A DNA stretch of 30,652 nt from an uncultured Chthonomonadaceae bacterium. GTDB taxonomy: Bacteria; Armatimonadota; Chthonomonadetes; Chthonomonadales; Chthonomonadaceae. Positions 1,967 to 27,971 of this stretch are shown here, piece after piece. The position numbers and the translations under genes were made by a program. The number at the start of each line of letters is the position of its first letter. The stretch's first letter is position 1. The notes below the pieces were generated by a model. That model saw nothing but the letters and a program-made list of their open reading frames with translations, was not told the DNA's origin and did no database searches. The stretch spans positions 1 through 30,652 of the forward strand of contig CAWIEK010000006.1 in the NCBI GenBank assembly GCA_963835065.1, read 5' to 3'.

Positions 1967-4265
1967 TTATAGGCTGGGAACTTCCCGCACCCAACGTTCG
2001 ATCATCGGAACGGCAAACGCGCCTTCGGCGGTCAAAACGTCGTGATTGCGCAGCCAGGCGTGGGCGGCGGGAAAATCCGGGAGTGGGCTGCCGTGCGCAA
2101 GAGCGCGAAAAATCGCCTGCCCGTCCTCGCCCGCATCGCTCCAGACATTCGCAAAATACTCGCCGCCACTGGAAAGCGCGGCGGCAATCGCGGCTTCCAC
2201 GTCCTCACAGGTCGCCTGCCTGCGCTGCTGCTGATTAAGATACTCCACAAGTTCATACGCGACCGCCTGCGTGAGATACGGCTGCCCCACCGTCTGATTC
2301 AGCACGGCTTCCAATGCCCCCTCCGCATACGTCATATCGAAGCGCGGGTCGGGATTCAGGAGCAAGGGACGCAGTTCGTCCGGGGGCAAGAAACTGACGC
2401 GCATCCGCCGCGCGCTGATAAAGCGATCCGTCCAGGCGGGGCCGAGTTCCGCAAACGTCCGCGCGCCCGTGAACATCAGCACAAGGCGCGGGCGGTGCTG
2501 CAAGGTATGGCGCAGCATATCCAGAAACTTCCCGCCCCAACCCGCGTCTACCGCTTCCTGCAGCCGTTCGTACTCGTCCAGGCACAGCAGGGCGCGCATA
2601 TCGGGGGGCAGGGCGCGTTCCATGTCATTCAGCCAGTCGTCAAAGGCGGCAAACGGCTCCCGCGCCAACATTTCCGCCGTGAGGGGTTCGATTGTCACCT
2701 GCCGCCGCTTCAAGCCCTCGCAGAGTGTGCGGGAAAAATAGCGCAGAAGAGTGGCTTCACTTCCAACGGCTGCCGGGTTCTGGCAGTCCAGCACGGCAGG
2801 CGCAAACTGGTTTCCAAGAAGGCGGGGCAACTGGTTCAGCAGGCTTGTCTTACCCATGCGGCGCGGGCCATGCAGCAGGAGCGTAGGCGGGTGCGCCGCG
2901 CCCAAAATGCTGCGCTCGATTTGCGCGGCAATGTCGCGCCGCCCGATGAACACATTCTGCTGTAACTCGCCGACAGGATTGCCGAACACGAACGGATTGT
3001 AAATTTCACCCGCTGGCCTCGATCTGCGTTTGCAGGGCAATGCGCTCATGCTCCAAAACATCGCGCCATTGGTTAGCCGTTTGCAATAGGCGTATATCAA
3101 ACTTTCTGCGCACTCCAATTAGAGCCACCTGCAAACCTTCCAGTTCCTTAATAGCGCTCTGCAGAGCTTCAACCTTGCGATGTTTATTGTAGAGCGTTCG
3201 CAACTTGCCCAACATTGTGGCGCAACGTCTTTACGAAGCAGCGGCGAACGCGGTGTGAAAAGCTTCCGGCAGTGTCATGGGTGCATCTGACCGCCCATTG
3301 CAGCCGCTCTTCGGCGTTTCTTCGATTTCGGGCAACGTGCCTGCCTGAAGATCATCAAGCGCAATTTCCTGCAACGACGATCGCGCGCTACGCGTCTCTG
3401 CAGAGGACGTTCGGCGGCAACAAAAGCGATTTGCCGCAATCCTTCTACTCTGTCTGCCCGCGTCAACAGCGACAAGCAATTCGAGATACATACGGCAACG
3501 GCAGCCAGATAACCTCATTCCAAGATACAGGACACAATCTTCCATGCGCGCTGCAATCCTTGTAAATTACGATCCTCGAATTGTCCACGCATAAGCAGTC
3601 AATCCCCAATCAAGTGGATAAGCATATCAGGCGAAAATACGTCAGCCAGAACGCCATAGCTGAACTGCCACACCGTACTGCCACACCTCCTGCCTATGCC
3701 AAATCGTACACCGAGTGCCACCCAAATGCTACGCCAGTCCCACACGCTGAGTATCACCGAGTGCTACGCCGATACCTACGCCCAATCGCTACGCTGAGAT
3801 GCCATCAGCCGAACCCTTACGCCGAGTGCCACACCGACTACTACGCCGAACCTCGCACCTCCCATCACGCCAATCCTACGCCCGAACCTTATGCCAAGTG
3901 CTACGCCCAATGTTACGCACGATCCCTATGCCAAGCTGCCATGCCGCAACGCCTACGCCTAGCGCTACGTCCTGATTGCTACGCCGAAACCCACGCCTTA
4001 TCGCCATGCCCATGCCAGAATGCAAGCCATTGATAATGAATACCGAACACTTTAGCAGCAGATGCCCGACAAGCAGGTTGCCACAGAGTGGCGAACGCCA
4101 CGAACACAGGGAAGTATCTTGAGCATGTAGCGTAATCGTTTCTGCCATGCTCATGTTCGAGGCTGACTATGTCTCGTGCCCTCCACTTCACGCTCGGAAC
4201 CGTGACGGCTGAAAATAGAGCAGAAAGAGTTGATGTAGTGACCATCGGAAGTAGGATTTCAGCAT
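1967..4265 (-). CDS. Membrane-anchored P-loop (STAND/AAA-like) ATPase with N-terminal Gly-Val-Ala-x repeat TM region, ~760 aa, reconstructed across many frameshifts
   Basis: Manual stitching: ATG 4265 MLKSYFRWSLHQLFLLYFQPSRF; 12-nt period GVAL/GVGF/GIGI repeats at ~3660-4015; AFWLTYFRL; PVSWNEVIWLPLPY; helical linker (ORF 3006-3215); EIYNPFVFGNPV..FIGRRD; Walker A GPRRMGKT; Walker B LLCLDEYE; GQPYLTQ. Confidence 0.78.
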
Positions 4266-4274
4266 GGGCGGAAC

Positions 4275-5616
4275 TTACCAAGAGGGCAGCAGAGACGCGC
4301 ATCTCTTCATTGGCGCGCTGTAAAGCAAGGAGAAATGTTGTCGTCGTGTTCCTTCTGCCTCGACGACATAATAGCAGGCGACTTGAAGCGCGAGAGGGTG
4401 ACAGCGGGCAAAGTCCAGTATGCGTGCTTTCTCATCGGAGTGAAAGGCGGGAATGCCGGAACGGAATACGGCTGAGGAAGTCGGCAGCATCGTGTTCCGT
4501 AAAAGGTCGAAAGAGAAAGCAAGTGGAAACATATTGATAGAAGGGGTGATGTGGGATCGTTGGGTCGGTCAAACAGTGTACTGAGAGGCTGGCGCGAGGC
4601 CGTGATGAGCGACATTCCCACCTGACTGCACGAACGTAACGTGAGGAAGAAAGTCACGGCGAAAACTGCTCCCGCCGCTCGAAAACTTCCTCGAACTCAT
4701 CTAGGCATAGCACCGGACGTTGTCCTTGCCGGCACAATGCCTCAATACCCTCCGCGAATTCCGTCAAATCATTGGGCAGTGACTGTGCAGGCCGAATTCT
4801 CTCTCCCGCCCGGCGCAAAAAACCGTTCAGGGTGAAGCATGTCGGGTGCTGCATATCCATGAAAGCAATCCTTGTGTTCGGCATCCACTCCGCAGCTTGC
4901 CGCGCCACTTGCAGCAGGAGGGAGGTTTTGCCGATGCGCCGTTCGCCCACAATCTGGCTGTTCTGACGCTTGCTGCAAAAAGTTTTTCAAACGGCGTTGC
5001 TCATGTTCGCGGTTGAAAAAGGCGTTTGCTTCCGTAATGCCGCCCCGCCAGACGAATGGATTGGCGGAGTGCGGCAACGTGCCATGCCAGTTGACAAGGC
5101 GATGTACGGTTATTTGCTTGGATACGCCTTTCAAATCGAAATCACGGACATGGGCAATTTCCGCTTCCCTGCCGTGAAGATGCTGCTCGACGTTTGCTGT
5201 AAAGTAAACCTCTCCCGCAGGACACTCGCTGCACACGCGGGCTGCGCGATTGGCGGCATCCGCGCGCAGGTTGCCGTCTCGAGCAGCATCGTGGCTTCGC
5301 CAAAGTCCATGCCGATATGCAGGTCGAATTGCAAATGCGGGTTCGTCAGTTCGGCATTGCGCTCTTGAACGCGCTTTTGGATCAGATGCCCGCACAGCAC
5401 GGCGTCACTACACGCGCCGAACGTGAGCATGTGCCCGTCACCCGTATCGGCAATGATAACGCCCCGACACAGCCCCGCCGCTTCCGCCGTGAGCGCGCTT
5501 TGCTCATGGGAAACCTGCCGTTTTTCTGCCGGCGTCCGCTGTTCCGAACGCGCCGTAGAGCCAATCTGGTCGGTGAACATCACCACTTTGAGTTCTGTTT
5601 TGAGTTCTGTCGCCAT
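4275..5616 (-). CDS. Class III nucleotide cyclase fused to a P-loop (STAND/AAA-like) ATPase, ~445 aa, reconstructed across frameshifts
   Basis: ATG 5616; VVMFTDQIGST, TGDGHMLTF, LHIGMDFGE, DAANRAARV, LKG (cyclase); NPFVWRGGI..FFNRE, Walker A GERRIGKT, Walker B VLCLDEFE, LITASR, HPLALQVAC; stop at 4275. Confidence 0.82.
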
Positions 5617-5695: not shown

Positions 5696-5988
5696 GCCAA
5701 GAACAACCGATTATGCCCATCGGGAAGTAATAGATGTATAGACTCCGAAGCAAGCGCCCTTTCCCCATTCCCACACGACACCAACAGCAACCATCCAGCA
5801 AAAAAACAGAAGCAAAGCCAAAAAAAGAGCAAAGTAACGCGAAAACAATGAACCTTTTGCCCCATTCCCTCTGTCTAACAAGCACAAATGTCTACTTTTC
5901 AGACACAAAGGCTGAACGTTGGTAGTTCCTATCAACTATCATAACCTAAAACCCTAAAACTAAAATAGCCAAAGGGAGGTACAGGCCT

Positions 5989-6325
5989 ATGTCCCACCCC
6001 TCCCGTTCGCCCTGACGCTGCTGAGGTCACGACGCCTCTCTCCTACAACCTGACACAACGAGACATCGGGCTGGAAGCGCTGTATTGCCAAGATTTCGAC
6101 GATGACTCTACATACTCTTATCTTTTACCTATATCTTCCCGGCTTATCTCTCCGAACTTCCCGTTGCTAGAGTTGGGCTTCCGCTGGTCGGGAAGCTATA
6201 GATTCGACCTTTGCTTGCCCGGATGCGCTCAATACGTAGTTCGTCAGGCGGCAAGGCAATTCCTGCATGGAATAAAAACTGCCGTTCCGGGGATTAAAAA
6301 TCCTCGGTCGCCGAAAGCGCCTTGA
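5989..6325 (+). CDS. Possible hypothetical protein with a frameshift near its 5' end
   Basis: Strong RBS AAAGGGAGGT before ATG 5989; that frame stops at 6015, but the +1 frame is open to 6325 (PDAAEVTTPLSYNLTQRDIGLEALYCQDFDDD...); no recognisable motif. Confidence 0.35.
6287..6307. repeat. REP-like imperfect palindrome (CCGGGnATTGAAAATnCnCGG family)
   Basis: ccggggattaaaaatcctcgg; relatives at 10613-10633, 10711-10731 and 24673-24692. Confidence 0.6.
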
Positions 6326-6525: not shown

Positions 6526-6819
6526 ATGGTTACATTGGATAGAGCCGCTGAAATCTCATTGGATACCTTGAAAGCGGAAGACCGCGTATTGGCGGAACGC
6601 GCTTTTGCCATTATCGAATGTTTTACGGAGGGAGATACGATGCAGAAAATCCGCAAAGTGTCTATGCCCGATCCCTCCGAAGACTTTTACATTGTGGAAC
6701 AAGGCCACCTGAGTTTTCTGTTTGAAGTGCATGGAGAGTGCAAATTGGTAGTGGACATCACGGCTACCGCCCGCCTCCGATTTTTCCAAAAATTGCGCGA
6801 AGCGGAGACCGCGGCGTGA
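6526..6819 (+). CDS. Small hypothetical protein, possibly RelE/ParE-like fold
   Basis: 97 aa, GGGAGG RBS; pattern VTLDRAAEISLDTL..helix..KIRKV..FYIVEQGHLSFLFEV..LVVDI resembles RelE topology; stop overlaps next GTG start (GTGA). Confidence 0.6.
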   Translation: MVTLDRAAEISLDTLKAEDRVLAERAFAIIECFTEGDTMQKIRKVSMPDPSEDFYIVEQGHLSFLFEVHGECKLVVDITATARLRFFQKLREAETAA

Positions 6820-7450
6820 AAACCTATTCGCAGTCGATCAATGCCAAATCACGCCGCGTGTCGGAATGAACTGGATGCTTACAAACTGTTACTTGACAGT
6901 AAACAGGAGTTGAGCGAAACCGTTGATATTCGCCCGTTCTTCGAGCGTAATCAGCACCTTGCCGCCTTCATCGGCTCTTATCATACCGGCATTGTTGATT
7001 TCGATATGGTTGCAGACCAGTTTTCGCTCTTTGGGGACTTTAGCTGTGACCTCGTAGTAGGTGACTCAACAACGAAAGTCATTCTACTTTGTCGAATTTG
7101 AAGATGGCGGGGAAACAAGTCTGTTTCGTTCCAAGCGGAATTAAAGCAACGCGGGAATGGGCACCACGTTTTGAACATGGATTTCAGTCAAGTCGTGGAT
7201 TGGTTCAACAAACTGGACGACATGAAACACACAAAACAGTTTGAGACGATGTTCGGCAGAGACGTTGAATACAGTGGTTTGCTGGTCATCGGGCGCAACA
7301 GCGCTCTTAAGCCAGGTGAGCGAGATCGTTTGCGCTGGCGGCAGCAAAATATACTGGTGAACTCGCGCAAGACGTGGAATGTGTCACCTTCGACGATTTG
7401 CACAGCATCGGCAAGGAAGTTGAAACGCTATCAACCTATTTGCTGCGCGG
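6816..7450 (+). CDS. Shedu (SduA / DUF4263) family anti-phage nuclease core, several frameshifts; 3' end approximate
   Basis: Stitched: MKTY..CRNELDAYKLLLDSKQELSE..IRPFF..LFGDFSCDLVVGDS..FYFVEFEDG..SLF..ATREWAPRFEHGFSQVVDWF..LLVIGR..RLRWR..VECVTFDDL; D, E and QxxxW, IGR and TFDDL motifs match DUF4263. Confidence 0.78.
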
Positions 7451-9534
7451 CTATTCCGCAAGGTCTTCTTCGCAGAAGACGATTTCTACATAACCTCCAT
7501 ACGTGTTCCCGTCTTGTTCGGCGCGGTTGGTAAAGGTGACATTGCCGTGCAGGTCGTGGCGGACGAGGGTGAGAACCAGTTCCAGCCCGATGTTGGCTTG
7601 CTTCATCTGGATTGAAGTCGGGCGGAAAGCCCGGCCCGTTGTCCTGCACAACCACATGTACATTGCTCCCCTGCCGCGTTAAACGAATTTCTATCGCCTT
7701 CTCGCTTTGCCCGCCATCTTCTTGCGGATTGCCTTGATGGCTGTCTTGAAGGTGGCTTTGAAGATGGCTTTGATGCTTGCGGCTGTGCTTGTCGGCGTTG
7801 GCAATCAGTTCCTGCACCACCAGCGCCAGCGAAGTTGCCGCTTTGGTCGGTATCCATGCGGCTTCGGTTCGGCAGCGCACCGGATGGGGCCGCTCGGACG
7901 TTTGCATCCCCGCCGCCATCAACTGCGTGAGATTGGTCAGCACCACGCCGGCGTTGACTTTGCCCATAGGCTGATCCCGCGCCAGCAAATCATGCACGAG
8001 GGCAATCGCCTTGATCTGGTTTAATCCCTGCCGTACCGTTTCCACCGGCATCGTGTCGCTGTCGGGCGGCAACTGCATTTCCAGCAGCGCCGACACGCCT
8101 TGCAGCGAATTCTTCACCCGATGATGCACTTCCTGAATGGCGCGGGTCAATTGCGCGCTGCGCTCCCGCTCGGCCTTCCACAATCGGCCATTTTCCACCG
8201 CCAGCCGGGTCCGAACCGCAACGGTTTCCACCAGCGTCACCTCGTCGGGCGTCCAGACGCGCGGTTCGCCCGCCGCGCTGACGACGAGGGAAGCCACCCG
8301 CTTGCCGTTTTCCATGAGGGGAACAGCAAGATAAGCGCGTATTTCGGTCGGCGCGTAAACCTCTTCGTAGCTGGAGGCAGTTCGGGGATCGGTTTGCGTG
8401 TCGGCAATGGTGACGGTTTTGCCCGCGTTCAGTTCGGCAAGCACGCCCGCGCCAAACGAACTCAGGCGATAAGTTCCCGCCCAGCTTGCCACATTGCGGC
8501 AGTAGTCGCGGTGAATGACCACTTTGTCGGCGTCCGTATCCGTATCGGTATAATAGCAGCGCGACACTTGCAGATGCTCGCCCAGCGTTTCAACCGCCGC
8601 CCACATCACGTCCTGCGGGTCCGGCGTCTGCCGCATGCGCTCGCCCAATTCACTCAGCCAGCCGCTCCTGCCGCTGCGCCCGCTTTTGCGCGTCAATGTC
8701 GGTGGCTGTGCCGAACCACTTGACAATGCCGCCGTCGCCATTGCGCATGGGCGTGGCGCGGGTAAGGAACCATCGGTACATCCCATCCCTGCCCCGGAGC
8801 CGATGTTCGATCTGGTACTCCCCGCCGGTCTGCAAAGCCTGCGCCCACGCCGTTCGCGTCGGCTGCAGGTCTTCGGCAAACACAATTTGCCGCGCTCCAC
8901 CCGCCAGCGTTTGTTCCAGCGTCAGGCCCGTATACTCCATCCAGCGCTGATTGTAATAATCGCGCCTGCCGTTCGGGTTGGCCGTCCACACGATCTGCGG
9001 AATGGATTCCGCCATAAACCGATACCGCTGTTCACCGCCGCGCAGGGCGGCTTCGGCCTGCCGCGCGTCCGTAATGTCGCGGGAATTGATGACAATGCCC
9101 GCCACGCTTTCATCATGCAGGAGATTGCGCCCCCGCGATTCCAGCAGACGCCAGGAGCCGTCCGCGTGACGAAAGCGGTACTCCACGCTCAGGGTCGCGC
9201 CAGGACGCTGCAGCAGTTCGTCGAACGTATCCGATACGTAGGCCAAATCATCCGGGTGGACATAAGCAAGGCAGAATTGGCCGTTCAAGTCTTCGCGCCC
9301 ATATCCCAGCGTTGGTTCAATGGCGGGACTCTCGTAACGAATGGTGCGGTCAGCGTCCACAATCGTAATGATGTCGAGCGCGTTTTCAATCAGCGATTGA
9401 AAATGGCGCGATGTCATTGCCGCCTGCGCTGCTTTCAGAGGTTCGTCAGGAAGGGCAGTCCAGCCGTCAGACGAAACAGGAACGCGCATTGCGGCGTGGG
9501 AAGCGGTTGTATCAGGCGCGGTAGGTTCCGACAT
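7451..9534 (-). CDS. Cytoplasmic sensor histidine kinase, PAS-PAS-GAF-HisKA_2-HATPase, with two apparent frameshifts (~8655, ~7600)
   Basis: PAS/PAC motifs VHPDD..EYRFRHADGSWRLLE and EHRLRGRDGMYRW; GAF (AYLAVPL..PRVWTPDEV); H-box EVHHRVKNSLQ; QELIANADKH; VQDNGPGFP; NIGLELV. Confidence 0.88.
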
Positions 9535-10494: not shown

Positions 10495-10611
10495 CCTGTG
10501 CGTCTCCTGTCTATTCGCGGGAAGCTACGGTTGGCTTCCCGTCGTAAACAGTGTACGCAGCCATGCCGCCAACGTTTGCGCCTGCGGCGCGTTTAGAGCC
10601 TATCCCAATAG

Positions 10612-10732
10612 GCCGGGCATTGAAAATACCCGGTCTGGAAAAAGCAAGCGTCCTGCGGACGCGGGAATCTGGATAGAGAATCGCGTCTGAAAGACGCTTG
10701 CACTTTCCTGCCGGGTATTTTCAATACCCGGC
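10612..10732. repeat. REPIN-like element: two inverted ~40-bp arms, each with an internal palindrome
   Basis: gccgggcattgaaaatacccggtctggaaaaagcaagcgtc (10612-10652) pairs with gacgcttgcactttcctgccgggtattttcaatacccggc (10693-10732). Confidence 0.8.
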
Positions 10733-14270: not shown

Positions 14271-14451
14271 AGGGGCCGGCAGGAGATTCTTCGTCGAAGG
14301 CGAAATTCAGGACGGAGAATGTCACCAGCGTGTTGGCGTAATGCGCGGGGGCCATACCCCTACAGCAGGACGAGAAGTGATTGCAAACAACCCGAAACAA
14401 GTGTTTTCGCTGGGAGGCGACAGGCGCGTGGGGGAAGCGAGGATGGTCATC

Positions 14452-17400
14452 ATGCAGACGTACCGCATCCAACTATTGGGCAAGCTGCAAGTGGACGGCG
14501 CGGAAACAACCCTTACGCGGTTTCGGACGCGCAAGACCGCGCTGCTGCTGGCGTACCTGGCGTATCATTCCGCGAAACCGACGCCCCGCGATGTGCTGAT
14601 TGAAATCGTCTGGCCGGAGTTGGATGTGGACGCGGGGCGCAACAACCTCAGCACGGCGCTATCGTCCCTGCGCCGACAGTTGGAACCGCCCGGTATGGCG
14701 GCCGGCGCAGTTTTGCTGGCGGATCGGCAGGCCGTGCAGTTACGCCCGGAAGCGATTGTCACGGACGTAAGCGAATTTGAAAACGCTCTGCGCGCGGCGG
14801 AAGGAACAACAAACGGAGCCAGGGCGGGACTGCTGGAAGCCGCCGTAAAACGTTATGCCGGCCCGTTGCTGCCCGACTATGACGCCGATTGGATAACCGT
14901 CGAGCGCCTGCGACTGGAGGAAGCGTACGCGCAGGCGCGCGGACAATGGCAGGCGCTGCAAGCCGAAGCCGGGAAACAAGCGCCTGCGGCAGTCAGCCAC
15001 AGGCACAGCGGGCAGGATACGCGCCTGCCCCTCTCGCCGCCGCTCGGCACGGTCACAATACTGGCAGTGGGAATGACTGCGCGAATAGCGGAAGGGGAGC
15101 GGGCGCTTTTTGAAAGCAAGTGGGGAGCGGAACCGGCCAGCGAACCGGCATGGCAAACGCCGGCCCCGATGCAGGCCGCTATTTTGCAGAACCAGTGCCG
15201 ACGGTTTGGCGGGGTTGTGATGCCGGGGGAAGCCGGGGCGTTTGTGGCTTTGTTCGGAAGCGCGGAAGACGCGCTGGAATGTGCCTTTGCCTGCCGCCAA
15301 TCGCTCGACGCGCAAACCCATGCGACGGCAAGCGCCTCCTCCGCGTTCTGTATGGCGCTGCATACCGGGGAAGTGGCAACCGAGGAAGACGGCCAGTGCG
15401 GCGCGGCGCGGAGGATTGCGCTGCGATTACTGGAAGTGGGGCATGGCGGGCAAATGCTGGGCACGATGCCGTTGGCCGCGCTGCTGCAAAAAGCCCGCAG
15501 CCACCGCGCCGCATGGGAAGACCTGGGCGAGTACCGGCTGGCCGAAGGCGCAAGCCCGGAGCGCATTTTCCAGATCAACGCTGCCGAACCGTCCCTGCCC
15601 CCTTTTCCGCCCCTGCGGGCTTCCCGGCTGACAACGGAAACGTTGCCCGTTCCCCTGAACCGCTTTTTTGGCCGCGAAGCGGAACTGGCGCGGCTGACGG
15701 CCTTGCTGCGCGCGCCCGATACGCGGCTTGTCACGCTGACGGGCATGGGAGGAACCGGCAAAACGCGGCTCGCCATCGAAGCCGGACACCGCGTACAGGC
15801 CATGATTCCCGGATTGGTCTGGTTTGTGTCGCTGGCAGGCGTGGAAGCCGCGAACCTGCTTCCCCACGCGCTTTGCCGGACGCTGAACCTTCTCCCGCAT
15901 CCCGCCGCCGACCCATTCGAGCAGATTTGCGATTTTTTCCGCCATCAGAACAGCCGCGATTTGCTGATTCTGGACAACTTCGAGGCATTGGTTACGGATG
16001 GAGCCGAATGGCTGCATCGGCTGCTGACGCGCGTTCCCAACATCGCCTGCCTGCTCACGTCCCGGCAGGCGCTCGAACTGCCCGGCGAATGGGTGCAGCC
16101 GGTGCTGCCGTTGCCCGTACCGGGCGAAGAAAAGGAGAAGAGGAGAGAGGGAGAAGAGGAGAGGGGGAGACAGGGAACAGAAGAGAAGCAGAAGACGGAA
16201 GACAGAAGATAGAAGCGGATGCGCTATCAACATCACTCATCACTATCACTCCTCATTTATCCTTCACCCCTCAACCCTCAACCCTCAGCTAATCTCCTGC
16301 CCCTCCGTGCAGTTGTTTGTCAACCGGGCGCAGGCGGTGAAGCCGGATTTTCAGATTACGCCGGGTAACGCCGACGCCATTGCCCGCTGCTGCATCGCGC
16401 TGGAAGGGATTCCCTTAGCCATCGAACTGGCGACGGCGCGGGCGCAGGTGATGACGCCGACGGAAATGCTGGACGCGCTGAAACAGCGGTTTGCGTTTCT
16501 GATCACGCGCCGCCGCAGCGTTGCGCCGCGCCACCAAACCCTGCTTGCCACCCTGGATTGGAGTTACGAGCGGCTGCGCCCCGAATTGCAGCAGTTTTTT
16601 GCCCAATGCTGCGTCTTCCGCGACGGCTGGACAGTGCAAACAGCCGCCGAAGTCTGCGAAATTGCCGCCGCGCAACACTCAACACCTGAATACCGAACAC
16701 CCGAACACCTGAATACCCAACACCTGGAATGGCTTCAGGAATTGCAGGCGCAATCGTTTATTGTGGGACGGGAGCCGCCGCCCTTTGCTGAGATGCGCTT
16801 CGGCGCGCTGGAAACGCTGCGCGAGTACGGCGAGGAAAAACTCAGCGTGGCAGCGCGGAACGCGGCGCGTAATCGGCATCTGGCCTGCTTTTTGAAGTTC
16901 GCGGAAACCGCGGCGTCGCATTTGCAGGGCGCGGAGCAGGCGCAGTGGCTGGCGCGTCTGGAAATGGAATACGCCAATCTGCGCGCGGCGCTGGCGTGGA
17001 GTTTGACCGACGCGGCGGAAACGGGAGGAGTGACAGCGGAAGCGGCGCTGCGCCTGGCGGGGGCGCTCGGCCCTTTTTTTCAGATACGGGGCTATGCGCG
17101 GGAGGGACGCGCGTACTTGCAGGCTGCGCTTGCCCGCGCGGATGCGATGCCCTCCCGCGCCCGCGCCCAGGCGCTGAACGAAGTCGGCGCATTGGCGCAA
17201 ATTCAGGGCGAATACGCGCAGTCCCGCGCCGCGTATGCCGAAAGCCTGGAAATATGGCGAAGGTTGGAGCATGAGCAGGGAATTGCCAACGCGCTCAACA
17301 ACCTGGGATTGATTGCCGAACTCGAAGGCGATTTAGACCTCGCGGAAGATTTGTACGCGCAGGGGATGGACATACGGGCTAAAATAAACGACAGGCCGGG

Positions 17401-18211
17401 GCTTGCCGCATCGTACAATAACCTGGGCATCCTCAAACAGATACGCCGCGATTACGCCGAAGCCGGCGCCTGGTACGCGCGCAGCCTGGCAATCAAGCGC
17501 GAACTGCAGCAGTGGCGCGGCGTAGCGTCCACGCTGAACAACCTGGGCAACATGGCCCACGCGCAGGGCGACTACGCCGCTTCGCAGGCGTACCATGAGG
17601 AGAGTCTGGAAATACGGCAGAAATTGGGAGACAAACAGGGGATCGCCGGTTCGCTGAACAACCTGGGCATGGTCGCCGAACAACAGGGTCGTTCTGAAGA
17701 AGCGCGCGGCCTGTATACGCGCAGCCTGGCAATCAAGGAAGAATTGGGAGACAAACAGGGCATTGCCATGACGCTGCACAACATGGCGAACCTTGCGCGC
17801 CGGCAGGACGAGTTGGAAGCGGCAGGCGTATTCTGCCGCCGGAGCCTGCAAATTCAACAGGAGATTGGAGACAGGCACGGCATGGCAGGGGGATTGCAGG
17901 CGCAAGCAATGATTGCCCATGCGCAGGGGCTTGCCAAGCGCTCGGCCCGCCTGTTTGCCGCCTATGCCGGTTTGTGTGACGCGCTGGGCCTGAAACTTTC
18001 CGCAGAAGAACAGGTCGAACAGGAGCGTATCACTTCCGAACTGCGCGCCTGTTTGGGCGCGGAAGCGTTCGCGCGAGAACAAGCCGCCGGTATCGCGCTG
18101 ACGCCGGAAGAAGCCATTGCCTGCGCTCTATCCGCCGAATACCTGAACACCGACCAGGAAGGCAGCCGCATCGAACTCTGGGAACCGCCCAAAGGAGCAG
18201 TGGGCAGATGA
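14452..18211 (+). CDS. AfsR/SARP-like regulator: winged HTH, truncated BTAD, degenerate cyclase domain, STAND ATPase, TPRs; one +1 frameshift within 16119-16209
   Basis: IQLLGKL..RKTALLLAYLAY..RDVLIEIVWPE..LSSLRRQL; LPVPLNRFFGRE; Walker A GMGGTGKT; LLILDNFE; TSR..L; SVQLFVNRA; LEGIPLAIELA; HQTL.ATLDWSY; repeated A.SLNNLG TPRs; second frame is open back through the gap. Confidence 0.88.
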
Positions 18212-24868: not shown

Positions 24869-27145
24869 ATGTTGACAGACACCGAAAACCCTGTTTTGCG
24901 CGTACAGCCTGCTTCCGTTCCCGACGAGCGCCGATTTCAAGGCGGGCTGCCGCCGGAAGCCTGGTTTCAAATGGGGCCGGATCAGCATGGCATCCGCCGC
25001 AGCCGTCCTTACTTCCTCGTGCCTTTGTTCGGCACGAAGTTCGGGCAGAAGTTCGGGACGGCGGGAAGCCAGAGCGGGCAAACGCCCAATCAAACAACCG
25101 TTTCCGAAGCGACGGGAACCCCCTATCTGGCAGCGCGGCAGGAAGTGAAGCAGCGCATTTCCGGGTACATACAAGCCCAAAGCCAATTCCCACCCTCCAC
25201 CGGGCAAGGCCCGATAACCGATGTTTTTATCCTCAGTCACGGCTGGCATCGCAACTTTTATGCGGGTATTGCCGCGTATGATCGCCTGTACAGCCGCCTT
25301 GCTCTGCTGATTGGGGATGGCCGCATTCCACTGCCTGCCAAAATGCCGTTCAGCCCGCTGTTTATTACCCTGCACTGGCACTCCGACCCCGGCGCGGATA
25401 CGTGGGTAGACAAGTCGGGCCGGCGTCACAAAGCGAGCTTCATGCAGGCGGCAGCAGACCTGTTTACGCTGGAAGACAGCGCGGCGAAACAGTACAAGGC
25501 TGAACTGGCTGCAATGTCGGCTGCGCCTGCCGGAAAGTTTGCGGGCTACGCGCCCAAAGAACTGGATTTTGTCCGCGACTTTGAGCAGATATTCCAGTAT
25601 TTCTCCGAACTCTCCGCCCCGGACCGCCTCCACACTTGGGACGCCAAGACGACGCAAAACGCCGACTATCTGACCAAGATGGCGGAAGATTTGTACCGGG
25701 TGTTGGGCTATTACACGCTCAAGGAAGAGTGCCGCGCCCTGCCCGAAGACAAGGTGGTTGTGGCGTGGCGGTGCTATCACGAGGCGGATAGTCGCGGTGT
25801 TCAGGTGGACGCCGAGACGCCGGGTCCCGCCGGTCCCGCCCGCTCCCTGAAGGGCTGGGAATCTTTTGTGTCCGTAGTACGCTTTGCCACCGCGGTACTG
25901 GGGCCATTGGCGCTCCTGGGAGGTATCGGCAGACCGATTACAACGTGGATTTTACAGCACAAACTGCAAAGCGCGGCGGTGTTTCTGATTCTCATCGGCG
26001 TGTCGGCCTGGGTGCTGGAAGCCAACGTTCAGCGGCGGCGTAACTGGAAACTGGCGCATCAGCAACGCGACAAACCGCAGTCCGGTATGCCGATTGCCCG
26101 CCTGCTGGCGTATGCCGTGCTGCAGATCGTCTGTATTCTGCCGCTGGTTCTGCGCTGCCTTGTCGGCTACGTGATGAGCGCGTTTCTAGGGCAATACGTC
26201 TTTCCGCTGTACGACGAGCGCACGGAAAACTATACGCTTCCCTGGTCGGTAAAATTTGCGCGCTACCCGGTGCGCCAGTTGCAGCAGGCTGTCGGTCCCG
26301 ACAGCAGCGTTCTAACGCTTGTGGAAGGGCTGGATTCGCAGGTTGCCTTTTGGGAAATGCAGCACAAGGGAGTGTGGGCGGGGCATCAGGCGGCGGCGTT
26401 TTTGAACGAGCTAATGGAGGAAAACCCAACGCTGTTTCCCGCAGATGGTAACGGCGCGCGCATCCATACGATAGGCCATAGCTTCGGCGCTCTCGTGGTG
26501 CTGAACCTGGCGCGTAAACTGACCGAACTGCGCAAAGGCCGGAACACGCATATCAAATCGCTGTGCCTGCTGGAAGGCGCGGTTGCCAGCGGGTGGTTCG
26601 ACGCCGAACCACAACTTGTGGACAGCATCACCAACCAGAACCGGGGCGTGATTACCTCGATCTTTTCCCGCTATGATACCGCCAACGGCTACATCTATCC
26701 CCTTGTCAATCAGGCGCGAATGGCGCTCGGCAGCGTCGGCATGGCGCGTATCGGAACGGCCAAAAAGGGCGCGGCAGGCCATAACAGTATTGCCGCATCA
26801 AATACTATTGCCGCGCCTAATAGCATTGCCACGCAAAATACGAATGTGGGAGTAAACACCGCAGCCGTGCAAAACAGCATCGCCGGGGCCAGCGGCTACA
26901 ACCTGCCGCCGGAATGGCCGGTATGGCGCAATGGGTTTGCCTCCCTGGTGACGCCGCCCGACCTTGATGTAACCGCGCCCTGTATGCTCAACATTGACGC
27001 CAGCCGCCTGATCTACTTCGGCGCTCCCGCTCTGGGCGGCGGGCACGACGACATTTTCAAAGACGATGTGCTGCACCTGCTCTGGGCCGTCAGCCACGTT
27101 CCCGCCCGCCTGCAATACGCCGCGCAGCCACAGGCAGAGGGATGA
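24869..27145 (+). CDS. Alpha/beta-hydrolase-fold protein with an internal multi-TM insertion
   Basis: VFILSHGW (oxyanion region), TLHWHS, nucleophile elbow HTIGHSFGA, LCLLEGAV, SRYDTA, GGGHDDIF; 3-4 hydrophobic helices mid-protein; GAGGAG RBS. Confidence 0.78.
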   Translation: MLTDTENPVLRVQPASVPDERRFQGGLPPEAWFQMGPDQHGIRRSRPYFLVPLFGTKFGQKFGTAGSQSGQTPNQTTVSEATGTPYLAARQEVKQRISGYIQAQSQFPPSTGQGPITDVFILSHGWHRNFYAGIAAYDRLYSRLALLIGDGRIPLPAKMPFSPLFITLHWHSDPGADTWVDKSGRRHKASFMQAAADLFTLEDSAAKQYKAELAAMSAAPAGKFAGYAPKELDFVRDFEQIFQYFSELSAPDRLHTWDAKTTQNADYLTKMAEDLYRVLGYYTLKEECRALPEDKVVVAWRCYHEADSRGVQVDAETPGPAGPARSLKGWESFVSVVRFATAVLGPLALLGGIGRPITTWILQHKLQSAAVFLILIGVSAWVLEANVQRRRNWKLAHQQRDKPQSGMPIARLLAYAVLQIVCILPLVLRCLVGYVMSAFLGQYVFPLYDERTENYTLPWSVKFARYPVRQLQQAVGPDSSVLTLVEGLDSQVAFWEMQHKGVWAGHQAAAFLNELMEENPTLFPADGNGARIHTIGHSFGALVVLNLARKLTELRKGRNTHIKSLCLLEGAVASGWFDAEPQLVDSITNQNRGVITSIFSRYDTANGYIYPLVNQARMALGSVGMARIGTAKKGAAGHNSIAASNTIAAPNSIATQNTNVGVNTAAVQNSIAGASGYNLPPEWPVWRNGFASLVTPPDLDVTAPCMLNIDASRLIYFGAPALGGGHDDIFKDDVLHLLWAVSHVPARLQYAAQPQAEG

Positions 27146-27252
27146 GGAGAGGGGGAGAGGGAGAGGGAACAGGGAACAGCAGGAACCCAATCGGCAATCG
27201 ACAATCCACAATCGGCAATGAATTCATCCTTCATCCTTCATCCTTCATCCTT
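27146..27252. repeat. Three different heptamer arrays filling a convergent intergenic gap
   Basis: GAGAGGG/GGGAACA units 27146-27179; CAATCGG/CAATCGA/CAATCCA units 27188-27219; (TTCATCC)x4 27223-27250. Confidence 0.85.
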
Positions 27253-27254
27253 GC

Positions 27255-27833
27255 CTACGGCGTGTTGGCGGCGCGAACGGGAGCGTCGGCGCGGGCTAAT
27301 TGTTGGGTGAAGAAGGCGGCGCGTTCGGGGGCGATGGCGGCCAGCACTTCACCGACTTTTTTCTCGTCCATGCGGCGCATCAAGGCGACAGTCTGCGGAT
27401 CGGGCATTTTGGCAAAGATTTTTATCACGCTGTCCGCCGGCATCTGCTCATAAATGGAAGCCAGCCGCGCCACTTCTTTGGGATCAAGGGACGGGGCCGT
27501 GGTTTCCTGTTTGGCTTTGTCGGCTTTGGCTTTGGCTTCCGTGTTGGCCTGCGCCTGCTTTTGCGCTTCCCAATCCGCGCGCTCCTTGTCCAGCGACGCG
27601 CGCTGCGCTTGCAACGCCTGCTGTTCCGGCGAAATCGTGGGCGCAGCGGGCGCGGGCTTTATCTCCGGCGCTTTGTACAACCCCAACGGCTTCAAGACGC
27701 GGGCCAAAGCGGGGTTTTTCTCCCCCATCTTCTGCGCCGGGATTATCTGCGCCTTCGCCAATCCAAACCCAATCCCAAGCGCCAGCGCCAGCGGCACAAC
27801 GGTCAACAAAACGATTTTTAAGCCTTTGGGCAT
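27255..27833 (-). CDS. MotE/FlbB-like flagellar protein (TM, coiled coil, MgtE_N-like domain)
   Basis: N-terminal TM; coiled coil; RLASIYEQMPADS..IFAKM...LMRRMDEKKVGEVLAAIAPERAA; flagellar operon context. Confidence 0.78.
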   Translation of the reverse strand: MPKGLKIVLLTVVPLALALGIGFGLAKAQIIPAQKMGEKNPALARVLKPLGLYKAPEIKPAPAAPTISPEQQALQAQRASLDKERADWEAQKQAQANTEAKAKADKAKQETTAPSLDPKEVARLASIYEQMPADSVIKIFAKMPDPQTVALMRRMDEKKVGEVLAAIAPERAAFFTQQLARADAPVRAANTP

Positions 27834-27845
27834 TGAAGTCTCCAG

Positions 27846-27971
27846 AAGTAGTCAGAAGTGAGTAGTCAGTAGTCAGTAGAGGAACCCATTCTTGCAAGCT
27901 GGTTCCATAGCACAACGCCATGAGTAAACAGGCATTTCTACTGACTACTGACTACTCACTTCTGACTACTT
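27846..27971. repeat. Perfect 35-bp inverted repeat built of AGTAGTC heptamers, 56-bp loop
   Basis: aagtagtcagaagtgagtagtcagtagtcagtaga (27846-27880) is the exact reverse complement of 27937-27971. Confidence 0.92.

Follow-up and report, generated by a model that had tools for sequence, protein, structure and literature searches.

Two adjacent genes, here called A and B, lie in broken form on the minus strand of a 30,652-nucleotide (nt) stretch of DNA (the window; contig CAWIEK010000006.1 of assembly GCA_963835065.1) from an uncultured Chthonomonadaceae bacterium of the phylum Armatimonadota, and they are one copy of a real, widespread and conserved modular unit of two STAND-type ATPases that occurs across phyla. 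The product of gene A joins a class III nucleotide cyclase to an ATPase; that of gene B has a glycine-rich hydrophobic region, a helical domain and a second ATPase. At a probability of roughly 0.5, we favor the reading that the two proteins form a split switch in an anti-invader response, with B as the sensor in the membrane and A as a docking partner that brings an interchangeable enzyme.

The A-B Pair and Its Distribution

Of 8000 candidates scored against the ATPase piece of B, 412 longer proteins match it at E<=0.001; the top matches are about 750 amino acids (aa) long and 60-76% identical to it, and because of these longer homologues a chance reading of the piece can be excluded. Intact homologues of A are about 445 aa in length. 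The alignment of B consists of 38 proteins, and the loci scanned were 26 from genomes and 78 from metagenomes, the latter drawn from the best 80 of 111; hosts that carry a name belong to the Acidobacteriota, Verrucomicrobiota, Planctomycetota, Latescibacterota, Bacillota and Chloroflexota. B was present at 103 loci, 59 of which could be evaluated, i.e., they included the start of B and 600 nt upstream of it, and the other 44, being truncated or of a different build, were not counted. Directly upstream of B there is an A-type ATPase gene at 52 of the 59 (53 if the distance allowed is 800 rather than 700 nt) and, after removal of near-duplicates, at 48 of 52 distinct loci, which divide into a near clade (29/30) and a far clade (19/22). 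The misses are L019, which has no A, L095, where the upstream sequence is too short, L080, where A is about 0.9 kilobases (kb) away, and L098, where one gene intervenes. A first-pass annotation of the window had suggested asking whether the gene upstream of B is always an ATPase with a swappable N-terminus, and both the two-gene unit and the swappable front of A are supported.

Since the profile for A was seeded from genes upstream of B, the pairing was counted again from the A side, on 52 A-type loci from 552 genomes with flanks of 1.5 kb. The top five matches (at least 185 bits; two of them are loci already in the B-side set) all have a hydrophobic B directly downstream, an arrangement found at 11 of the 52 loci; at 15 loci with weaker matches the B-type ATPase gene is upstream instead. 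In a FastTree tree (a quick method, rooted at the midpoint) a deep split separates the A from the B types, and overall the distances among A proteins agree with those among their B partners (mirror-tree test, r 0.91; best shuffle 0.29). At L006 and L045 a near-clade B is paired with a cyclase-ATPase A of another branch, from which it appears that partners are exchangeable.

The distribution of the pair is sporadic. No full-length match was seen in 30 relatives of the window genome, both genomes of the same genus included, or in the 17 genomes of the same family within a 300-genome sample of the phylum. Plasmid matches to A were confined to the cyclase, and the ATPase part of B was matched in two plasmid records; the ESM Atlas returned unnamed cyanobacterial and Chloroflexota clusters alone, with feature scores <0.9, which we regard as leads. 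The flanks of the pair vary among loci.

Predicted Structures of A and B and of Their Complex

The model of A (from L030; predicted local distance difference test score, pLDDT, 89.7) consists of the cyclase, the ATPase and three short helices, and that of B (from protein P0001; pLDDT 81, predicted template modeling score 0.53) runs from a bundle of hydrophobic helices, modeled with low confidence, through a helical domain to the ATPase. Between three and nine hydrophobic segments precede the WxExIWxP motif in 37 of the 38 aligned B proteins, and B is predicted from these sequences to be anchored in the membrane via glycine-rich helices. The top fold match of the B ATPase is the archaeal PH-type structure 2qen (E 6.7e-7, template modeling (TM) score 0.65 of the target), with 2fna in sixth place (E 1.7e-5), and the A profile finds both by sequence too. 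These folds, together with the motifs, bear out the earlier description of the two proteins as paired STAND-type ATPases.

The ATPase of A and the last 547 residues of B, both from L030, are predicted to dock with a score of 0.67, as compared to 0.00 for the best of three controls, by a mark that 116 of 157 solved pairs and 2 of 215 mismatched pairs reached in calibration; the runs share at least 91% of their contacts and the partners have pLDDT values of at least 82. This prediction lends weight to the first-pass inference that the two ATPases hetero-oligomerize. In the model, R147 of A, which is 100% conserved, contacts Q279 of B, and R252, R253, T257, D277 and E348 of B are at the interface, where its Walker A and Walker B residues lie; a second contact with A is made via the helical domain of B. 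The invariant arginines of the two proteins, A R147 and B R369 (each in 35 rows), are putative arginine fingers, and the model places that of A alone in trans. The arginine of A is accordingly drawn by the model into the ATP site of B, a site predicted to be complete in the A-B complex alone. The Walker A motif is regular in the B of all 47 pairs and absent from the A of three (L015, L043, L052), and such constancy in B with occasional loss in A fits B as the holder of the working site.

The Interchangeable Front of A

Among 29 near pairs, the front of A is a cyclase in 24 (two of these are partial and were assigned by likeness), and a TIR domain (L037), a patatin (L016), a helix-turn-helix (HTH) domain or an unassigned domain in one each; the remaining A has no front domain, and at its locus a patatin gene lies 6 nt upstream. 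The far pairs include one HTH front and one caspase-like front. A CHAT front was found at L178 and L183, both loci of the phylum Chloroflexota, and trypsin versions at L057 and L061, where the genes are convergent to B-type genes and not in tandem with them. In the FastTree tree the TIR, HTH and trypsin versions are nested among the cyclase versions.

The cyclase piece of the window itself has no Pfam match at E<=0.01. Its assignment as a class III cyclase, already proposed in the first-pass annotation, is upheld by a weak NCBIfam match to LipJ, by the Pfam Guanylate_cyc matches of intact homologues of A and by the fold. The nearest relatives by sequence and fold are Ma1120 and LipJ, with a root-mean-square deviation (rmsd) of about 2 Å to Ma1120. 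We take the roles of individual positions to be those generally given for class III cyclases, and placed them via the Ma1120 alignment. In 25 homologues the two metal-binding Asp are kept in 24 and 24 (one protein is truncated), the Asn in 23 and the Arg in 25, and all four are also present in the window. The base-selecting pair is Lys/Asp in 20 and 19 of the 25 homologues (L018 is an example) and Ala/Asn in the window and L030; judging by these residues, the product in the subclade of the window may be a nucleotide other than cyclic AMP (cAMP).

Sister Pairs and the Wider Two-ATPase Family

The A profile also retrieves strong members of the Pfam family nSTAND2 that have a C-terminal kinase and often stand behind a B-type ATPase gene. 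Other B-type ATPases have HEAT, GAF, TIR, sigma-54 activator, tubulin-like or DNA methylase fronts, and other A-type ATPases have HD-type, transcription-factor, patatin or caspase domains as tails. On account of these fronts and tails, B tends to be the input side and A the output side, and the split between input and output occurs in conflict-like as well as signaling-like versions.

Individual loci illustrate the range of arrangements. L190 (2254-10019) is a plasmid operon of a WYL gene, a type I restriction subunit, a fusion of DNA methylase and B-type ATPase, and an A-type ATPase. Proteins of about 1,430 aa with a C-terminal B-type ATPase are encoded at L128 (5059-9345), L129 and L135, with a tubulin-like front in that of L128, the one scanned, and no A partner was seen adjoining any of the three. 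L140-L162 are fusions of nSTAND2 and a Ser/Thr kinase from the phylum Acidobacteriota, many of them right behind a B-type ATPase gene, and at L130, L134 and L137 the gene after a HEAT-repeat B-type ATPase encodes an A-type ATPase with a fused HD-type phosphohydrolase. At L100, L101 and L086, several A-type and B-type genes cluster together, and kinase, FHA, caspase and transcription-factor domains occur in these clusters; L086 has two tandem A-B pairs.

Relation to Known Systems

Judging by sequence, the A-type ATPase is a relative of the nSTAND2 family (PF20702), and the nSTAND2 operon is the closest known kind of system. Kaur et al. 2021 (PMC8195603) predicted it as a mobile operon of two genes, each of which encodes an MNS-like STAND NTPase; both proteins have a conserved arginine finger and are predicted to form a hetero-multimer, and one of them bears a variable effector. 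The '??+STAND+wHTH' gene comes first and nSTAND2 second, the effector (TPR+HEPN or GT4) sits at the C-terminus, and the motifs of one NTPase are eroded. The A-B unit is likewise a pair of adjacent STAND NTPase genes, as its folds and the 48/52 count indicate, with an invariant arginine, a putative finger, in each protein. It differs in that A comes first and has an N-terminal effector, in that the window retains intact Walker motifs in both ATPases, and in the hydrophobic bundle of B, there being no membrane partner or fused front cyclase in the source table of PMC8195603. The PF20702 cut-off of 24 bits is passed by 6 of 16 A-type partners of a hydrophobic B, and the three nearest to the window score none, 16 and 19.7; strong nSTAND2 members (138-485 bits with Pfam) form a branch separate from A in the FastTree tree. 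PADLOC and NCBIfam gave no named system for the pair, with weak matches to PDC-S27, PycC and LipJ. The first-pass view of the system as undescribed is thus right as far as those two collections go and too strong in that a two-STAND operon was predicted in 2021.

B resembles the MNS clade (PH-type Paby2304, SSO1545) in joining an AAA+ P-loop fold to a helical module (2qen, 2fna), and the solved members Paby2304 and SSO1545, unlike the A-B pair, are stand-alone archaeal ATPases. Npun2340/2341, which represents a further family of this clade, is said to have been presented as a neighboring gene pair by Leipe in 2004. In the relevant part of Kaur et al. 2021 (PMC8195603) that family is named and no more.

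Pycsar and Pucsar resemble the pair in that a class III cyclase stands next to a membrane protein, as predicted for B. In contrast to Pycsar, the cyclase of A is fused to an ATPase and replaceable, and no cyclic nucleotide (cNMP)-binding domain was seen in B or among the best five Pfam families of each of 233 neighboring genes (132 at 25 near loci and 101 of 108 at 21 far loci; the remaining 7 were scanned separately or are further family members). PycC matches are weak (best E 5.6e-7, PADLOC). The Pycsar-like logic that had been suggested is not supported, no partner gene for cNMP binding having been seen.

Avs and bacterial NACHT proteins, as described by Lee et al. (PMC13581612), each consist of one tripartite chain that has its repeat sensor at the C-terminus. 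They share with the pair a STAND ATPase whose N-terminal effector is activated on assembly, as is proposed for A-B, whereas the models of A and B both stop right after the ATPase module; PADLOC gave no Avs or NACHT-system match for the pair. Kaur et al. 2020 (PMC7159879) place cNMP cyclases, peptidases and TIR-fold domains, in the portion that treats them, at the front of conflict-system components, and the EACC1 two-gene membrane-associated and VMAP/iSTAND ternary systems of that portion resemble the pair in having a constant and a variable component with cyclase, caspase, trypsin and TIR-fold fronts; unlike these, the pair has no EACC1, MoxR or vWA core gene among the 233 neighbors. We found no description of the A-B architecture in the literature, and the large clade tables of PMC13581612 may list such proteins; in that source, outside those tables, seven supplements lack three accession stems and three terms tied to the pair, and the text covered makes no mention of cyclases.

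A Proposed Anti-Invader Switch or Ordinary Signaling

As a split switch against invaders, the pair would work as follows. A disturbance of the membrane would alter the glycine-rich bundle of B, B and A would assemble into an ATP-dependent oligomer, and the crowding in the oligomer would dimerize the cyclase domains of A, class III cyclases being enzymes that function as dimers; in other strains the same crowding would activate whichever of the TIR, caspase-like, CHAT and patatin domains A carries. The trigger may be phage entry or phage membrane proteins, which is a guess, and host receptors would read the cyclic nucleotide, since none is encoded beside the pair. The pairing and the predicted complex count in favor of such a switch, and a role in defense is suggested by the TIR, patatin, caspase-like and CHAT fronts, by the patchy spread, and by a related pair at L190, which has a fused DNA methylase and a restriction gene as its neighbor.

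A number of observations weigh against this reading. For the complex, conservation is no higher at the interface than in the rest of the protein (0.66 vs 0.62 in B, 0.53 vs 0.57 in A), both chains have AAA+ folds and so may pass the docking mark by likeness to solved rings, and the docking was of the L030 proteins, not those of the window, with controls that did not include a homodimer. In the near clade alone, the A-B distances agree at r 0.49, under the best shuffle of 0.69 (mirror-tree test). The effector is apparently optional, because 17 of the 19 far pairs have no recognizable front on A. B has no repeat-type sensor, no relative was found in viral contigs with a single-protein query, and B-type matches in 7/7 genomes of one family give a housekeeping look. 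The 233 neighbors are mostly housekeeping genes. Defense-like neighbors were seen at 3 of 25 near loci (L009, L012, L043) and at about 7 of 21 far loci (L027, L065, L082, L084, L088, L104, L106), counts that have no matched control, and they are mainly single domains or toxin-antitoxin genes. Whole systems were sought among 84 chosen from 240 neighbors and three window proteins and turned up at 2 of 46 loci (a type III restriction system at L106, a HEC-01-like pair at L027), which by a hand estimate is not above the defense-neighbor null of 0.0153 given by Lee et al. (PMC13581612), whose methods differ from ours. The enrichment in defense islands envisaged at first pass was not found in these counts and is not supported.

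The same split switch could serve ordinary signaling, with B as the receptor of an envelope or metabolic cue and A passing it on as cAMP or another output to host regulators, much like a two-component system made of two ATPases. Sister pairs in which GAF, HEAT or membrane-linked B fronts are coupled to kinase, HD-type or transcription-factor (DNA-binding) A outputs make this a serious rival, and the housekeeping neighbors, the lack of a shared third gene beside the pair at the 25 near and 21 far loci, and the affinity of the cyclase to Ma1120 and LipJ rather than, except weakly, to PycC, are in keeping with it, as are the 31 cyclase and 11 cNMP-binding matches in the host genome. Defense and non-defense STAND clades are interspersed, according to the section of Lee et al. 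(PMC13581612) on the subject. What tells against it is that conflict systems are where fronts such as TIR, caspase-like, CHAT, trypsin and patatin typically occur, and that the pair is sporadic and was not found in the close relatives searched; we hold it to be a tenable explanation, less likely than the role in defense.

That the order is Pycsar-like, with A sensing and making the cyclic nucleotide and the glycine-rich helices of B forming a killing pore, is improbable: glycine-zipper helices make pores in other proteins, the B model has a helical bundle ahead of its ATPase, plant NRC resistosomes rank high in the fold search, and B is retained where A has no effector, but B has no cNMP-binding domain, unrelated enzymes replace the cyclase while B is unchanged, the NRC matches have an rmsd >20 Å and TM scores of about 0.3, and the hydrophobic region ranges from three to nine segments.

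The Copy in the Window

Six-frame translation places the ATG of A at 5616 and its TAA at 4277-4275, and the ATG of B at 4265 and its stop at 1969-1967, and so confirms the two minus-strand genes 9 nt apart that had been proposed (Table 1). The motifs reported for both ATPases are all present: NPFVWRGG...FFNR, GERRIGKT and LCLDEFE in A, and NPFVFGNP...FIGR, GPRRMGKT and LCLDEYE in B, where they follow PVSWNEVIWLPLP. Scans of the locus for promoters and terminators gave results at chance level.

Table 1. Coordinates of the A-B pair, its parts and the neighboring nuclease gene in the window
Feature	Positions	Strand	Description
Gene A	4275..5616	-	Class III nucleotide cyclase fused to MNS-like STAND ATPase, short helical tail; 7 frameshifts
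Cyclase domain of A	5085..5616	-	Nearest to Ma1120/LipJ; metal Asp pair, Asn and Arg retained; base-selecting Lys/Asp replaced by Ala/Asn
ATPase of A	4278..5065	-	Walker A GERRIGKT (4947-4924), Walker B LCLDEFE; invariant Arg of LR motif is the predicted arginine finger
A-B gap	4266..4274		9 nt between A stop and B start
Gene B	1967..4265	-	Glycine-rich hydrophobic bundle, WxExIWLPLP motif, helical domain, STAND ATPase and C-terminal helical part
Glycine-rich (GxxxG) repeat-like hydrophobic region of B	3600..4125	-	Predicted membrane helices
PVSWNEVIWLPLP motif (3531-3493) and helical domain of B	3015..3531	-	Partly contacts A in the model
ATPase of B	1970..3010	-	Unbroken; Walker A GPRRMGKT (2869-2846), Walker B LCLDEYE
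Shedu-like nuclease	6841..7533	+	Frameshifted pieces; neighbor outside the pair

The earlier account of about ten open reading frame (ORF) fragments that join into two broken genes was right about the genes and underestimated the breakage, which comes to about 27 frameshifts and one stop. By frameshift-aware alignment, A has 7 frameshifts and no stop at 63% identity to the L030 homologue, the first half of B has about 20 frameshifts and one stop, all before position 3013, at 54% identity to P0001, and the last kilobase of B has no breaks; counts are approximate within the repeat-like glycine region of B. We are fairly confident that the breaks are assembly errors. Decay by point changes is expected, from mutation ratios, to bring many stops, and because there is one stop beside some 27 frameshifts, with every catalytic motif still legible, error is the likelier cause. 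In a check of 26 gene rows of the assembly, two of them B itself, 7 of the other 24 have stray frameshifts (two of the 7 are one gene), serine hydroxymethyltransferase among them. Two unrelated sequencing runs from different studies share single-base gaps relative to the window at 7607, 7659, 8658 and 10634, and one of them also has such a gap at 4196, next to the first break in B; a contig of one run (X1) extends from inside A through the junction into B. These runs come from relatives of the source strain, not from the source (best share of words 0.11).

That the window copy is instead a decayed pseudogene pair, a question that concerns the strain and not the family, is unlikely, in spite of three points in its favor. 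Frameshifts here number about 10 per kb, some 35 times the rate of about 0.3 per kb measured for the assembly's other genes, and homopolymer sites account for 1 of the 27 breaks. The window also keeps slightly fewer of the conserved columns (139/154 in A, 68/81 and 160/174 in the first and second halves of B, or 0.84-0.92) than its homologues do (medians 0.95, 0.93 and 0.94, respectively). The argument about the family is independent of which of the two is true.

Surroundings of the Pair in the Window

The Shedu-like gene noted as a neighbor at first pass is real (PADLOC SduA, E 3e-25, in two pieces about 1.2 kb from A), and no link to the pair emerged. We reject it as a part of the pair, given that it lies on the opposite strand, that a related contig skips it and that no SduA_C was found among the best five Pfam families of the 233 neighbors. 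In the X1 contig, 6819-7450 is replaced by 68 other letters, which marks a strain-variable insertion. Just before it, 6526-6819 (+) is a 97-aa ORF that has no Pfam, PADLOC or NCBIfam match and is covered by both related runs.

Other features of the window include intergenic repeat families at 5980-6120, 5800-5900 and 10610-10732, with about 160, 60 and 190 genome matches, respectively; the last is palindromic (repetitive extragenic palindrome-like or resembling a miniature inverted-repeat transposable element) and is replaced in the related contig. Another STAND protein, with a transcription-factor HTH, an ATPase and TPRs, is encoded at 14341-18211 (+) in at least two ORFs that are probably one frameshifted gene, and ORFs of 758, 103 and 135 aa at 24869-27861 (+) have no Pfam or NCBIfam match.

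Significance

To our knowledge, each bacterial STAND receptor that has been tested is one chain, which uses C-terminal repeats to detect phage proteins in the cytoplasm. The A-B pair has its input and output split over two ATPases, a predicted membrane anchor and no C-terminal repeat sensor. It is possible, and we put it forward tentatively, that the pair represents a class of immune receptors divided between two STANDs, with a glycine-zipper sensor in the membrane, an ATP site completed by the partner and a plug-in output (cyclase, TIR, caspase-like, CHAT, patatin or HTH), and that this class is a branch of a wide two-ATPase input/output family which also runs kinases and phosphohydrolases. 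If the role in defense is true, a membrane-sensing heteromeric STAND would be added to bacterial immunity, and the two-STAND operons that were predicted in 2021 would have a first test case in the pair; if the role is in signaling, it would be a modular route from receptor to cyclase that does without a histidine kinase. In both cases there are intact copies, about 3.6 kb long, and the model names candidate functional residues in them.

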